From a virus (taxonomy: Duplodnaviria; Heunggongvirae; Uroviricota; Caudoviricetes), in the IMG/VR virus record IMGVR_UViG_2751185973_000008: DNA of 4,804 bases. The stretch is one strand, 5' to 3'. The notes under the pieces were generated by a model that ran no database searches, was not told the origin of the DNA, and worked only from the letters and a program-made list of their open reading frames with translations. Position numbers and translations under genes: made by a program. Of this stretch, positions 1 to 4,804 are shown in pieces. Within the stretch, counting starts at the first letter, position 1; each line of letters opens with the position of its first letter.

Positions 1-12
1 GCTTATAATCTG

Positions 13-285
13 GTGAGATATCAGATGATTAAAATGGCGGAACATCTGAAAGGTTACTGGCCGAATCAACTGAGTTTCTCAGAATCATGCGGAATGGTGA
101 TGAGAATGCTGATGACATTGCAGGGCGCTTCACCGGGACGTATACCGGAGCTGATGCGCGATCTTGCAAGTATGGGACAACTTGTGAAATTACCGACGAG
201 AAGGGGAAGGGCCTTCCCGAGAGTGGTAAAGGAGAGGCCCTGGAAATACCCCACAGCCCCGAAAAAGAGCCAGTCAGTTGCTTAA
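13..285 (+). CDS. Hypothetical ORF, 90 aa, no family recognised; may be the 3' end of a longer gene
   Basis: ORF track. The frame stays open back to position 1 (AYNL precedes the GTG at 13), so the ORF may continue beyond the window. It ends at TAA 283-285, and the same frame continues straight into the invertase remnant. No motif I recognise and no obvious Shine-Dalgarno upstream of 13. Confidence 0.2.
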   Translation: MRYQMIKMAEHLKGYWPNQLSFSESCGMVMRMLMTLQGASPGRIPELMRDLASMGQLVKLPTRRGRAFPRVVKERPWKYPTAPKKSQSVA

Positions 286-609
286 CTGACTGGCATTACT
301 TCTCCAATGGGGCGTTTTTTCTTCCACGTGATGGGTGCCCTGGCTGAAATGGAACGTGAATTAATTGTTGAACGTACACTGGCCGGGCTGGCGGCAGCGC
401 GCGCAAGGGGGCGCACAGGCGGACGTCGACCGAAGCTGACAAAAGAACAGCATGAGCAAATAGCAAGGCTAATCAAAAACGGGCACGACAGAAAACAACT
501 GGCAATAATTTACGGCATTGGCACATCGACGATTTATCGTTATCACCCTGTAGGCGATATACAGACTGAAGAAACAACCGGGCAGACTCAGGAAAATGAA
601 AACCGCTAA
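286..609 (+). pseudogene. 5'-truncated serine DNA invertase (Hin/Gin/Pin/Cin family); only the C-terminal ~107 codons remain
   Basis: Translation from 286 is LTGITSPMGRFFFHVMGALAEMERELIVERTLAGLAAARARGRTGGRRPKL...QLAIIYGIGTSTIYRY, which matches the conserved second half of Hin/Gin-type invertases (SPMGRFFFHVM...LAEMERELI...ERT, then the C-terminal helix-turn-helix). The N-terminal ~90 residues, including the catalytic serine region, are absent: an in-frame TAA sits at 283-285 and no upstream frame resembles an invertase N-terminus. No Shine-Dalgarno precedes the internal ATG at 307. Confidence 0.8.
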
Positions 610-628
610 TCTGACCATTAGCGGTTTT
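599..628. terminator. Bidirectional intrinsic terminator hairpin between the convergent invertase remnant and the gpU-like gene
   Basis: AAAACCGCTAAT (599-610) pairs perfectly with ATTAGCGGTTTT (617-628) around a 6-nt loop CTGACC, giving a 12-bp stem. On the plus strand it is followed by T, then GTGTT. On the minus strand it is followed by CATTTTCC. It lies about 10 nt past the U stop (640-638) and contains the invertase-fragment stop (607-609). Confidence 0.55.
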
Positions 629-637
629 TGTGTTAAA

Positions 638-1132
638 TCAGAACAGCCCTTTAACTGAACTGGCCGCGCTGTTAAGAGATGATGTCACCTTATCTTTGAA
701 GCCGGACAGCATATCACTGAACGATGAGGATTGCAGGCGCTCCCGCAAATCCTCATCACAGCGTTCAAGAGTCAGTGAAAATTCTATCTTTTTCGCCTTA
801 CCGTAGCGATCAAACTCGGAGCGGGTCGTATTCGTTTCAGTCAGGACATACATGCCGTAAATCTGCCCGACGCCATCAATCAAAGGCCAGGGTCGTCCTG
901 TATACGCCTGCGTGGTCAGCAGCGACAGCGACACTTCGCCACCTGTAATTTCAGGATAAAGCACACCAGAAAGAACGATGCGATCATCACCTGCACCGAT
1001 ATACTGCCAGCTTGCTGAACGGTTAACGCGTTCATTTTTCACATGCCGCCAGCTTTTGTTTTGCTGTAACTGCTGATGCGGCAGCGTGCGCAGCTCAAAA
1101 ACAAACATGCCGTAGATCATCATCATGGCCAT
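638..1132 (-). CDS. Phage tail protein, P2 gpU-like, 164 aa from the first ATG; the more likely start is ATG 1126, giving MMMIYG...
   Basis: ORF track. The N-terminus MAMMMIYGMFVFELRTLPHQQLQQNKSWRH resembles the gpU family as I remember it (MMM..G.FVF.L.T.P.Q.L); this is recall, not alignment. The gene sits immediately after the tape measure gene, as U does in the P2 FETUD tail operon. GAGGAG (1140-1135) overlaps the tape measure stop TGA (1141-1139); it is 2 nt from ATG 1132 and 8 nt from ATG 1126. Confidence 0.7.
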   Translation of the reverse strand: MAMMMIYGMFVFELRTLPHQQLQQNKSWRHVKNERVNRSASWQYIGAGDDRIVLSGVLYPEITGGEVSLSLLTTQAYTGRPWPLIDGVGQIYGMYVLTETNTTRSEFDRYGKAKKIEFSLTLERCDEDLRERLQSSSFSDMLSGFKDKVTSSLNSAASSVKGLF

Positions 1133-1134
1133 GA

Positions 1135-1140
1135 CTCCTC
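1135..1140 (-). promoter_or_regulatory. Shine-Dalgarno for the gpU-like gene, overlapping the tape measure stop codon (translational coupling)
   Basis: Minus strand reads GAT TGA GGAGTC ATG GCC ATG ATG ATG; the GAGGAG includes the TGA stop of the upstream gene. Confidence 0.6.
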
Positions 1141-3982
1141 AATCTTTATCGTAAAAACAGCCACGCCCGGCACGGGCGCGCCGTTCCATTTCTGCCCTGA
1201 CCATTTCACCGACCAGTTTCGCCAGTTCGCGGGGATTCTGCGTAACAACGTTATGCAGATGAACATGAATTTCACCACCAAATCCGGAGGCAACAGGCTC
1301 CCGGTTACGGGAAGTTACAGGAACTGATGCCACTGGAGATCGTATAGCCTCCGCCACCGGGCGGGAGCTGGCCGCAACAACAGGGACCAGCGCCGGAGGC
1401 AGCGGAGCCGGAACCACGGGTGTGATATTAATTGCGGGGGCAGGCTTACTGACCTGCGCAATCTTCCGCTCCTGCCACTCCCCACGAACAGCAAGTGCTC
1501 GGGGCAGGTTTTTAAAGACAATATCGCCGGGGCCAATGCGTTTTTTCGTCTCCTCAACCAGCTTACCTGTGTTATCAGCAATTTTGCTGAGTCTGCGCAG
1601 CGTACCGGTATTGCTGTCTGTGAGCGGTTTATTGTCTTTGGGGTTATCACCTCCGGTGCCATTGCCATTTTCCACAGGCTTCGGCGGATTGATTTTCGCC
1701 AGGTCCCCCTGAAGCAAGGCAACCTTGTCCTGAAGAATGGCCGCACGCTGTGCGTCTTCGATTTTCTTGCGCGCCCTTTCCGCTTCATCCGGAAGCACAC
1801 CAAGCTTTTCAAGTATCCACGCCAGCGTATCCAGCAACATTTTTGCAGGTGTCAGAACAAGTTGTAACGCACCGCCAAGAACGTTACCGAATATCTCGCC
1901 AGCACTGGTACATTTATCCAGAGTTTCCTTGCTGGACTCCATCGGTGACAGCAGCGATTTAAACCAGTTAAACACCTGGCTGATCCCACTCCCGATTGCG
2001 TCAAAAACAGGACCAAACCGTTCAAATGTTTCGCGCAACGGGGTCAGCCTTTCCATAATCCCGCTGAACACCCCGGCAAAAAATGCCCTGATGGGATCCC
2101 AGTATTTCCAGATAAGAACGGCAGCTCCGGCAAGCGCAGCCACGATAAGACCAACCGGACTGAACAACGCCCCGATAGCGCCTCCCAGTAAAGAAACGGA
2201 ACCCGTCACCATTCCCCATAGTGCTGGCAGAACCCTGACAGCATTCATTGATCCGGTCAGGAGGGAAAAACCAAGACGCAGTTTTGCCAGCGGGCCAGCA
2301 AGCACACCAATAGCCAGCGACAACGAGCCAACCGTTGCAGTCATTGCCAGCAATGCACCGCCTGCAATCAGTAGCTGGCGCGTCAGTGCGGGATGGGCCT
2401 GCGCCAGCGCCGTCACCTTTGATACCACACGCGTGAGCCACTGCGTGACAGAACGCAGCGGACCGTCAATCAGATCTGCAATGCGGATGCGCAACCCTTC
2501 CCATGCACTGCTGAGTGATTTCAGATCGCCGTCAAGGTTGTTGGCCATAACCTTTGCCGTGCGTTCAGCCTCACCGCGCGCGCCTTCAAGTTCTTTTCTC
2601 AGTTTGGGTAAGGAGCCGTCACCTGCCGCATCAACGAGGGCCATAAATGATGTGAAAGCCTCTTCTCCGGCAATGTCCTTAAAGAACGATACCCGGTCAA
2701 CTTCCCCGTATTTGCGGGTAGCTTTATAAAGGTCAGCCAGCACATCCTCCATCGGGCGCATTTTGCCCCCGGCATCCGAGACAGACACGCCAAGCTCTTT
2801 CAGCGCCTCTGCTGCCGCCTTTGGCGGTGATGCCAGACGAGCCAGGCTGGCACGCATTGCCGTACCAGCATCACTCCCCCTGATACCCATATTCGCCAGC
2901 ACGCCCGCCATCGCTGCGGCCTGCTCCAGAGATATTCCCAGCTTACCCGCCACCGGACCTGCATATTTCATGGTTTCACCCAGTGCGCGAAGGTCAGTGT
3001 TGGTACGGGTAAACGCTGCGGTGAGTGTGTCGCCGACCCGGTCCATCTGGTCAGCAGAAAGACCGAACTGCGTCAGAATATTTGAGCCAATATCCGCCGT
3101 CTCACCGAGGTCCATACCGCCAGCCGTTGCCATGCTCAGTACGCCAGGGAGCGCAGCCTGAATGGCCTGTGGTGTAAAGCCAGCCATTGCAAGAAATGCC
3201 TGTCCACTGGCGGCATCGCCTGCGGTGAACTGCGTTTCAGAGCCAAGTTTTAACGCCTGCTCACGCAGCGCCTTAAACTGCGGGCTGTTCTGGTCGATTC
3301 GCGTCAGTGCCTGAACGCGGAACATCTCTTTGCCGAACCCGATCGCAGGCTGCAAAAAACGCCCGGCAGCATAGCCGCCCGCCGCTGCCGCACCAATTGC
3401 CAGCGCACCACCTGTTTTCAGTTTTCCCGCTGTTTCCTGCGCGCGCGAATACCGCTCACGCGCCCGTGTTACACGCGCAAGCGCCTGCCGTTCGCGTTCA
3501 AGCTGGTTGTTGTACTGTTCGGTGCGTCTGATGGCCTGCTGGATGGTGTTATCGCTGCCTGTCAGGGAAATGCCGTGGCGTTTCAGCTCTCCGCCAAGCT
3601 CCCGCATTTTCTGAATTTCCCGTGTGCGCGATTCATTCAGGCGTTCAAGCCGGGTGCTTAACTGCTGCATCAGCTTTTGTTGTTTTTCGCTGAGCACTGT
3701 ACCCGTGCGTTGTAACTGATTAAGGGCGTTAAGCTGGCGTCGTGCTTTCACGATGCCCGCATCCGCTTTACTGACAGCGTCACGGGCGCGCTCAAATGAT
3801 CGCGCCTGACGCTCGAGATTTTTGATCGCCCCCTGCGTTCGCTGGATGGAGTCACCAAACTGCCCCATCAGGCGGCGGGCGTTTTCGGCAGGCCGGGTCA
3901 GCCTGTCAACGGCGCTGAAAGCGACCCGGATATCAAGAGTCTTCATTGTCTGCATTCCCGCTACGAAGTGCCGCTCGCTCAC
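1139..3982 (-). CDS. Phage tail tape measure protein, 947 aa from GTG 3982; a start at ATG 3946 (MKTLDIRVAFSAVD...) or ATG 3955 is possible
   Basis: Single 2844-nt ORF. The N-terminal third is coiled-coil-like and rich in Q/R/E/L/A. The centre has long Gly/Ala-rich hydrophobic stretches (LLIAGGALLAMTATVGSLSLAIGVLAGPL...GLIVAALAGAAVLIWKYW, about 2099-2390). The C-terminus has a Pro/Ala/Val-rich low-complexity segment (about 1315-1452). It sits directly downstream of an overlapping chaperone pair and upstream of a gpU-like gene. The only ambiguity is the start codon. Confidence 0.9.
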   Translation of the reverse strand: MSERHFVAGMQTMKTLDIRVAFSAVDRLTRPAENARRLMGQFGDSIQRTQGAIKNLERQARSFERARDAVSKADAGIVKARRQLNALNQLQRTGTVLSEKQQKLMQQLSTRLERLNESRTREIQKMRELGGELKRHGISLTGSDNTIQQAIRRTEQYNNQLERERQALARVTRARERYSRAQETAGKLKTGGALAIGAAAAGGYAAGRFLQPAIGFGKEMFRVQALTRIDQNSPQFKALREQALKLGSETQFTAGDAASGQAFLAMAGFTPQAIQAALPGVLSMATAGGMDLGETADIGSNILTQFGLSADQMDRVGDTLTAAFTRTNTDLRALGETMKYAGPVAGKLGISLEQAAAMAGVLANMGIRGSDAGTAMRASLARLASPPKAAAEALKELGVSVSDAGGKMRPMEDVLADLYKATRKYGEVDRVSFFKDIAGEEAFTSFMALVDAAGDGSLPKLRKELEGARGEAERTAKVMANNLDGDLKSLSSAWEGLRIRIADLIDGPLRSVTQWLTRVVSKVTALAQAHPALTRQLLIAGGALLAMTATVGSLSLAIGVLAGPLAKLRLGFSLLTGSMNAVRVLPALWGMVTGSVSLLGGAIGALFSPVGLIVAALAGAAVLIWKYWDPIRAFFAGVFSGIMERLTPLRETFERFGPVFDAIGSGISQVFNWFKSLLSPMESSKETLDKCTSAGEIFGNVLGGALQLVLTPAKMLLDTLAWILEKLGVLPDEAERARKKIEDAQRAAILQDKVALLQGDLAKINPPKPVENGNGTGGDNPKDNKPLTDSNTGTLRRLSKIADNTGKLVEETKKRIGPGDIVFKNLPRALAVRGEWQERKIAQVSKPAPAINITPVVPAPLPPALVPVVAASSRPVAEAIRSPVASVPVTSRNREPVASGFGGEIHVHLHNVVTQNPRELAKLVGEMVRAEMERRARAGRGCFYDKD

Positions 3983-4471
3983 GCCAGCTAACCACTTCGC
4001 AGGGCGTCATCATGAAGATTTCGGCGGGCGACCAGTTAAAAATGGCGGCAATATCCGCCACCAGATCTTCGATGTGCTCAAAGCACACCAGGGTGATTAC
4101 GCTGCCGTCTCCTGCACGCTCTTCGCGCCAGAGTCTGGCTCGCTCATAAAATTTACAGCCACAGCGCACAACTGAATAAAATCGCGTGACGACATTTTTT
4201 TAATCATCACTTCATCCAGTCGTGGCGAGGTCACGCGAGGCAACAGCGTGAACATGGTATCCGCTTTCAGATTCAGCACATCAGACAGCGACAGACCACG
4301 CAGGGATCCAGCCTGCTCAATAGCCCCGGTGATCTCCACATACGTGATTTTTTCGCCACCACGCTCAATTGGTCGGGTCAGTTTTACGCCACGTTCGACA
4401 GCCATATCCTCAACTGCCGTCACATTATCCGCCACGGTGTTATTCCGGGTTTCAGTATCGATGTCTTTCAT
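3933..4471 (-). CDS. Tail assembly chaperone fusion E+E' (gpGT analogue) made by programmed -1 ribosomal frameshift; about 179 aa if the shift is at 4154-4148
   Basis: The -1 frame relative to E is open from TAA (4202-4200) to TGA (3935-3933) and overlaps the last ~35 codons of E and the first codons of the tape measure gene. E codons start at coordinates of residue 1 mod 3 and E' codons at residue 2 mod 3, which on the minus strand is exactly a -1 shift. The in-frame heptamer A AAT TTT (4154-4148) reads AAT TTT in the E frame and AAA TTT after the slip, continuing YERARLW in E'. Confidence 0.6.
4097..4471 (-). CDS. Tail assembly chaperone, P2 gpE-like (lambda gpG analogue), 124 aa
   Basis: ORF track. 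Strong Shine-Dalgarno AGGAG (4483-4479) lies 7 nt before ATG 4471. A small ORF immediately upstream of the tape measure gene whose 3' part is overlapped by a -1 frame ORF is the conserved chaperone architecture of long-tailed phages. The translation contains SLRGLSLSDVLNLKADTMFTLLPRVTSPRL. Confidence 0.8.
   Translation of the reverse strand: MKDIDTETRNNTVADNVTAVEDMAVERGVKLTRPIERGGEKITYVEITGAIEQAGSLRGLSLSDVLNLKADTMFTLLPRVTSPRLDEVMIKKMSSRDFIQLCAVAVNFMSEPDSGAKSVQETAA
4148..4154 (-). other. Candidate -1 slippery heptamer A AAT TTT for the E to E' shift
   Basis: X XXY YYZ pattern in the correct phase within the E/E' overlap. An alternative is the A7 run at 4201-4195 (ATT AAA AAA ATG in the E frame), but the -1 frame has a TAA at 4202-4200, so the P-site re-pairing would be imperfect. 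Confidence 0.4.
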
Positions 4472-4478
4472 CTGTTGT

Positions 4479-4483
4479 CTCCT
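4479..4483 (-). promoter_or_regulatory. Shine-Dalgarno for the E-like chaperone
   Basis: Minus strand reads ACTGAAAAGGAGACAACAG ATG; AGGAG with a 7-nt spacer. Confidence 0.7.
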
Positions 4484-4526
4484 TTTCAGTCAGAGGCGAC
4501 GCACTGCGCCGCCAGCATATTACTTA

Positions 4527-4584
4527 TCAGCCAAGCCCAAGCGCGGAACGGATGCGATCGGGCACAATGTCCTTGCCGTCCTTC
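4527..4584 (-). pseudogene. Possible 3' end (last 18 codons) of a tail tube (P2 FII-like) gene cut by the IS1 insertion
   Basis: The minus-strand frame ending at TGA (4529-4527) reads KDGKDIVPDRIRSALGLG and is the most protein-like of the three frames between IS1 and E. Its position, directly upstream of E with a 55-nt gap, matches the FII-E order in P2-like tail operons. The link to FII is positional only, with a vague recollection of the family's C-terminus. Confidence 0.3.
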
Positions 4585-4607
4585 GGTGATGCTGCCAACT
4601 TACTGAT
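4585..4607 (+). repeat. IS1 left terminal inverted repeat (IRL, 23 bp)
   Basis: Exact IS1 end sequence GGTGATGCTGCCAACTTACTGAT. The flanking 9 bp on the outside are CCGTCCTTC (4576-4584). Confidence 0.9.
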
Positions 4608-4639
4608 TTAGTGTATGATGGTGTTTTTGAGGTGCTCCA

Positions 4640-4804
4640 GTGGCTTCTGTTTCTATCAGCTGTCCCTCCTGTTCAGCTACTGACGGGGTGGTGCGTAACG
4701 GCAAAAGCACTGCCGGACATCAGCGCTATCTCTGCTCTCACTGCCGTAAAACATGGCAACTGCAGTTCACTTACACCGCTTCTCAACCCGGTACGCACCA
4801 GAAA
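4640..4804 (+). CDS. insA: IS1 InsA (transposition repressor / N-terminal part of the InsAB' transposase), first 55 codons; partial
   Basis: A GTG start at 4640 is preceded by GAGGTG. Translation is [55 protein letters not shown], the InsA N-terminus with its zinc-finger cysteines. It is missing from the ORF track because it has no stop inside the window. Confidence 0.9.

Follow-up and report, generated by a model that had tools for sequence, protein, structure and literature searches.

The right-hand edge of the viral DNA examined here (the window, a stretch of 4,804 nt) raises the question of what the IS1 element lying just upstream of a set of phage tail genes has interrupted, whether it arrived by simple insertion or marks the border of a rearrangement, and whether its arrival is what disabled the tail module. 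The explanation that we hold with considerable confidence, taken as a whole, is that the window represents part of a decayed Xuanwuvirus-type prophage (P2-like, Peduoviridae) within a Shigella boydii-like genome, with IS4 at its left edge and IS1 at its right, and that the IS1 element entered by simple insertion, without deletion, as a late and neutral hit in an already dead tail tube gene, with the tail genes E, T and U probably unexpressed.

Between the two insertion sequences the window closely follows known phages. Over 4286 nt it shares 99.8% nucleotide identity and the same gene order with Escherichia phage 503458, and other Xuanwuvirus (Peduoviridae) phages are also similar (520873, 99.7%; P884B11, 99.5%; P88, 95%). 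An uninterrupted homologue of positions 299–4584 occurs in 1,358 complete E. coli genomes at identities of up to 99.8%, and the exact 935 aa tape measure protein is present in 179 blocks of the assembly collection, including 67 blocks with contigs of 2–5 kb and 104 with contigs of 5–10 kb. Four tail genes lie on the minus strand, all of them intact. These are the gpU homologue (638–1126, 162 aa, with the start codon as annotated in UTI89; PF06995 Phage_P2_GpU, 5.5e-39), the tail tape measure protein or gpT homologue (1139–3946, 935 aa; PF10145, 3.7e-58), the E′ segment that extends the chaperone in the −1 frame (3933–4088; PF06528 Phage_P2_GpE, 1.2e-12) and the gpE-type tail assembly chaperone itself (4097–4471, 124 aa; a weak PF10109 Phage_TAC_7 match). 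The E′ homologue in UTI89 is annotated as a ‘GpE family phage tail protein’, and the gpE protein is identical to its UTI89 homologue. No internal stops are found in E, E′, T or U, and comparison with UTI89 gives 12 nucleotide differences over 4286 nt and 4 amino acid changes.

The native gene order, common to P88 and UTI89, is invertase / U-T-E′-E-tube-sheath / D, with U, T, E′, E, tube and sheath on the strand opposite the invertase. In P2, the late tail operon FI-FII-E-E′-T-U is served by one late promoter upstream of FI, and E+E′ is produced via a −1 frameshift. The window resembles this operon in its gene set and order, in an E′ that overlaps in the −1 frame and in a slippery heptamer. It differs in that the Xuanwuvirus block reads towards the invertase and tail-fibre genes, D being separate and in the opposite direction, and in that the P2-type late promoter motif TGT-N12-ACA has no perfect match upstream of the sheath gene in L012, a long contig identical to window positions 299–4804, and occurs elsewhere at chance level. 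The heptamer, A_AAT_TTT, is located at 4154–4148 on the minus strand, near the end of gpE and in the X_XXY_YYZ register; the E′ −1 frame is open from 4169, overlaps the heptamer and ends at 3933. As a predicted signal, the heptamer fits the programmed −1 frameshift that yields E+E′ in P2-like phages.

The gap between gpE and IS1 (4472–4584) measures 113 bp. It holds the native 55 bp tube–E intergenic spacer (4472–4526, minus strand), which can be read directly from the sequence, and then a minus-strand frame of 18 codons (4583–4527) that translates to KDGKDIVPDRIRSALGLG followed by a stop codon. This stub is identical to residues 153–170 of the 170 aa UTI89 protein WP_000290450.1, annotated as ‘phage major tail tube protein’. 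Converting coordinates by adding 8702 to those of the UTI89 contig (L001), the stop codon of WP_000290450.1 falls exactly on positions 4527–4529 of the window. Across residues 4–168, the full-length UTI89 protein scores 7.5e-47 against PF04985 (‘Phage tail tube protein FII’); the score belongs to that protein, as the 18 aa stub is too short to score by itself. The tube gene is also located between the sheath gene and chaperone E in UTI89, in phage P88 and in the Shigella relatives. The gpFII genes of P2-like phages (Xuanwuvirus 503458, 520873, P884B11 and P88) and of the UTI89 prophage have the same last 18 residues, position and spacer. By these matches, IS1 sits in codons 152–155 of the 170-codon tail tube gene (gpFII, PF04985). 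Unlike the gpFII genes of those phages, the gene in the window is a pseudogene, split by IS1 at these codons and with no intact translatable copy, and in the identical relatives it additionally has two frameshifts further upstream.

The IS1 element occupies positions 4585–4804 on the plus strand and runs off the window. Elements annotated as ‘IS1 family transposase’ in complete E. coli genomes (4,960 of 5,426) match it with 100% identity over all 220 nt; IS1 has a median of 10 places per E. coli genome. The left 220 nt contained in the window show no difference from the IS1A/IS1B-type IS1 of E. coli and Shigella. The tip at 4585 is the start of the canonical 23 bp left inverted repeat (IRL), GGTGATGCTGCCAACTTACTGAT, at 4585–4607. 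From a GTG at 4640, a plus-strand frame matches the Pfam domain Zn_ribbon_InsA (PF03811, E = 6.5e-22) and the start of PF12759 (4640–4804), identifying insA, which reads rightward, inward from the IRL. A promoter-like site, CTGCCA-16-TATGAT, lies on the plus strand at 4592–4619, within the IRL, and is the sole such site in 4000–4804; it coincides with the insA promoter, which is known to be embedded in the IRL. Homology to uninterrupted prophages reaches the IS1 boundary and ends there; a further 3–7 nt past the boundary is a chance match. With the IS1 identity and the tube match, the feature is a real insertion junction and not a chance resemblance. The initial annotation had placed the IS1 left end at 4585, 113 bp upstream of the E start, had insA pointing away from the tail genes and had suspected that the 18-codon frame was the C-terminus of a tail tube protein interrupted by IS1. 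The coordinates hold throughout, the PF03811 match confirms the direction of insA and the identity to UTI89 bears out the suspicion about the tube gene.

The window ends 220 nt into IS1 with one copy of the target-site duplication, the 9 bp CCGTCCTTC at 4576–4584, and the far side of the element was seen in identical relatives only. The exact 405 nt IS1/tube junction is present in six long contigs (L012–L017) from five assemblies, which over the 4506 nt of window positions 299–4804 have no mismatches (L012–L015 and L017) or a single one (L016). Among them is CP049281 (L013), the Shigella boydii 600657 (clade 2) chromosome (PMC7545283). The IS1 of every one of the six measures exactly 768 bp, contains both insA and insB with a PF03400 (DDE_Tnp_IS1) product, and ends in a right inverted repeat (IRR), GGTAATGACTCCAACTTATTGAT (beginning GGTAATGACTCC), that matches the IRL at 18 of 23 positions. 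The 9 bp sequence GAAGGACGG, the reverse complement of CCGTCCTTC, flanks both ends of the element. On the far flank the sequence continues into TTCATTTACCGGAAGGACGG, corresponding to tube codons F-I-Y-R-K-D-G, and the remaining tube gene and then the sheath gene, both called as genes (the former as a tube fragment), lie directly beyond. Removal of IS1 together with one copy of the repeat leaves a sequence colinear with the UTI89 tube gene.

UTI89 shows the site without IS1, as a single CCGTCCTTC with CGGTAAATGAAG after it, and so does L040, a sister contig of Shigella type that has 9 differences from the window over 4254 positions. The initial annotation had proposed that a simple insertion would show an IS1 right end about 768 bp away, a 9 bp direct repeat and possibly a tube gene continuing beyond the element, and that an uninterrupted homologous prophage should be compared; the six relatives agree with the first set of expectations in every case, and UTI89 and L040 provide the comparison. 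The 768 bp element, the 9 bp duplication and the tube and sheath genes beyond it in L012–L017 indicate simple insertion rather than deletion. The IS1/tube junction itself has no match in the 5,426 complete E. coli genomes, the GTDB species representatives or the JGI metagenome contigs. As a mechanism, IS1 would have transposed into tube codons 152–155 by ordinary simple insertion, duplicating the 9 bp target CCGTCCTTC. Nothing would have been deleted, and the first ~152 tube codons and the sheath gene would remain on the far side of the 768 bp element. In orientation, the IRL and insA stand beside the stub, and insA is transcribed away from E-T-U.

Given that the IS1 right end lies outside the window, the genome from which the window derives could have undergone a further event, either recombination between IS1 copies or an IS1-mediated adjacent deletion, that took away the 5′ portion of the tube gene or moved it elsewhere. 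In that case the DNA to the right of IS1 would be unrelated and would lack a matching 9 bp repeat. Rates of IS-mediated rearrangement are high in Shigella genomes (PMC8072062), the relatives differ among themselves in nearby IS content, and the window strain has undergone an IS4 event at 298/299 that no long-contig relative has. However, all six long contigs with the exact junction have an intact simple insertion with target duplication, and these same contigs are essentially identical to the window over 4.5 kb. We consider such a later rearrangement unlikely. The junction might also be imagined as an assembly artefact in which a prophage contig was wrongly joined to a copy of the IS1 repeat, as IS1 is highly repeated and assemblers often mis-join at repeats. 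Yet the identical 405 nt junction recurs in six long contigs from five independent assemblies, PacBio and hybrid complete genomes among them, it is found again at the ends of many short-read contigs, and it carries a proper 9 bp target duplication; an artefact of this kind is extremely improbable.

With simple insertion as the preferred reading, the order of events can be addressed from the 5′ part of the tube gene in the relatives (8133–8594 in L012, the same region in L013–L017 and about 4200–4707 in L040). All IS1-bearing relatives share a K22N substitution and two 1 nt deletions, both in homopolymers (G6 to G5 at nt 192 and A5 to A4 at nt 382), and the resulting frameshifts lead to a stop after codon 106. 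Both deletions appear alike in PacBio, hybrid and Illumina assemblies and are thus not sequencing errors. In L040, K22N and both deletions are present while the IS1 site is empty. A sister sequence that is frameshifted and free of IS1 implies, by parsimony, that the tube gene was already a pseudogene before IS1 arrived. As read from these sequences, IS1 is a late passenger and not the cause of tail-module loss; polarity and the loss of the tube protein would both predate it. Coming late, into a gene that two 1 nt deletions had inactivated beforehand, the insertion would have been selectively neutral.

The initial annotation had IS1 probably disabling the tail module. A non-functional tail is well supported and further strengthened by other lesions in the prophage, while the causal role assigned to IS1 does not stand, as the tube frameshifts in the relatives came first. 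In the relatives, the prophage additionally contains an IS1 in the tail fibre gene, a 3.5 kb insertion between D and ogr and a 1.3 kb IS after a truncated ogr. The prophage is not complete or potentially inducible, with IS4 in the invertase in the window and, in the relatives, IS1 in the tube and tail-fibre genes, frameshifts and the IS adjacent to ogr. IS-driven pseudogenization is the norm in Shigella (PMC8072062), and in this Shigella-type genome the insertion in the window is one IS hit among many.

Whether the intact E, E′, T and U reading frames are expressed is a separate matter. The gpE gene is preceded by a strong Shine–Dalgarno sequence, AAGGAG (4484–4479), 7 nt before the ATG. For a late transcript that starts upstream of the sheath gene, the path to E-T-U would lead first through a tube gene whose reading frame ends at codon 107 and then through the 768 nt of IS1, antisense and untranslated. 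Classical IS1 insertions, such as those in the gal and lac operons, are polar, and a terminator in IS1 was reportedly described by Hübner and colleagues in 1987. A simple scan found no intrinsic terminator in IS1 in the direction of the tail operon, so polarity, if present, would be Rho-dependent. Likewise, RNA folding of the gap was not more stable than that of shuffled sequence (z = 0.77), indicating no structured RNA or terminator there, and no Rfam matches were found in the window. With this premature stop and the untranslated antisense IS1 in the path of the transcript, E, E′, T and U would be expected to be silenced through Rho-dependent polarity. As in gal and lac, IS1 lies within an operon and separates the distal genes from their promoter. 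In contrast to those cases, the silencing of E-T-U is an expectation drawn from classical IS1 polarity and from consensus promoter scans, and the operon was frameshift-broken before IS1 arrived. Although intact as ORFs, E, E′, T and U are probably silent.

Expression could be restored if a −35 element at the IS1 end were paired with a −10 element in the flanking DNA, or if an antisense promoter inside IS1 drove E-T-U. Such hybrid promoters created by IS1, with an outward −35 element and a −10 element in the flank, are said to have been documented by Prentki and colleagues in 1986 (cited in PMC12095673), and the IRL does contain an outward-facing TTGGCA (4598–4593) that matches the −35 consensus at 5 of 6 positions, 8 nt from the IS1 tip. 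The intact state of all four genes and the strong ribosome-binding site before E would also be in keeping with expression. However, no hexamer with the A2/T6 signature of a −10 element lies at 15–19 nt spacing from this TTGGCA. No usable minus-strand sigma-70-like promoter was found in 4440–4804, including the 113 bp gap and the IS1 end, by either a program scan or a lenient scan; the sole lenient match (8/12) places its −10 element downstream of the E start codon, and the whole IS1 of L012 was free of promoter-like sites on the corresponding strand. Additionally, in the absence of the tube, sheath–tube assembly and tail fibres, the products would be of no evident use. Expression of this kind is very unlikely.

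A related suggestion is that E-E′-T-U are under selection, with transcription initiating cryptically at the IS1 end or within the 113 bp gap, and serve a role beneficial to the host. What invites it is that the 3.8 kb E-E′-T-U block has no stops or frameshifts, whereas the adjacent 0.5 kb tube gene has three lesions. With approximately 8 lesions in the 22 kb tail region of the relatives, zero lesions in 3.8 kb would be expected about one-quarter of the time. An unhit block of this length is unremarkable. Selective retention has no positive support and is, in our estimation, highly improbable. The reading of E, E′, T and U as intact and probably silent remains the one that we prefer.

At the opposite end of the window, positions 1–298 (plus strand) match elements annotated as ‘IS4-like element IS4 family transposase’ at all 298 nt (100% identity). 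They contain the C-terminal portion of the transposase coding sequence together with the terminal inverted repeat, whose last bases, CTGGCATTA, end at 298. Prophage homology begins at 299 with the C-terminal remnant of the DNA invertase (299–609, plus strand), approximately the last 100 of 199 aa, which matches the end of the Resolvase domain and HTH_7, as in a serine DNA invertase. The gene has been cut by IS4; an intact 199 aa invertase gene is present in UTI89 and the Shigella relatives. None of the 5,426 complete E. coli genomes contains the IS4/invertase junction, and it is also absent from the GTDB representatives, the JGI metagenome contigs and the otherwise identical Shigella relatives. 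The truncated invertase product, taken with either of two possible starts, matched only proteins truncated in other ways or at contig ends, and the relatives found through the tape measure protein and its near flank all have an intact invertase. Two inverted repeats are apparent in this region. One, with an 11 bp stem at 269–294 (GCCAGTCAGTT...AACTGACTGGC), is terminator-like on both strands and belongs to the end of IS4, whose terminal repeat region it overlaps, rather than to the prophage. The other is a hairpin with a 12 bp stem at 599–628 (AAAACCGCTAAT...ATTAGCGGTTTT), between the convergent invertase and gpU genes, with T/A runs on both sides, and looks like a putative bidirectional intrinsic terminator.

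Variation is evident elsewhere in the prophages of the relatives. The tail-fibre segment beside the invertase, including its IS1 copy, occurs in both orientations (L012 and L015 versus L014 and L016). In strain 600657, the chromosome CP049281 (L013) has one orientation and CP049283 (L017) the other. The latter, p600657_26, is a 26.7 kb, non-circular record and is probably the alternative inversion state of the prophage rather than a plasmid. The presence of both orientations suggests that the invertase may still be active where intact. The 3.5 kb insertion between D and ogr in the Shigella relatives encodes a 1039 aa protein (L012 2314–5433, minus strand) without a Pfam or PADLOC match. In other relatives the same place is taken by a 930 aa ORF beside an ORF with a HetE-N domain, or by DUF87 and SIR2_2 (L038 7371–10279; L039 7329–10279), and UTI89 has nothing there. 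The D–ogr interval appears to be a site of variable cargo, perhaps genes for defence.

IS1, a gpFII-type tube gene, the phage genus and IS pseudogenization in Shigella are all well-known categories, and nothing here is new; S. boydii genomes already deposited carry this same insertion. The IS1 near the 3′ end of the tube gene is ordinary mobile-element damage to an already broken gene. In practice, the locus should be annotated as a prophage remnant in which the tube gene is a pseudogene disrupted by IS1 and, in the relatives, also frameshifted; otherwise the insertion matters little. A working tail or tailocin should not be deduced from E-T-U. Both insertion junctions, IS1/tube and IS4/invertase (the latter so far found only in the window), are possible lineage markers for S. 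boydii-like strains. A frameshifted sister free of IS1, set beside the IS1-bearing lineage, gives a clear order of events, in which IS hits accumulate in genes that are already dead.
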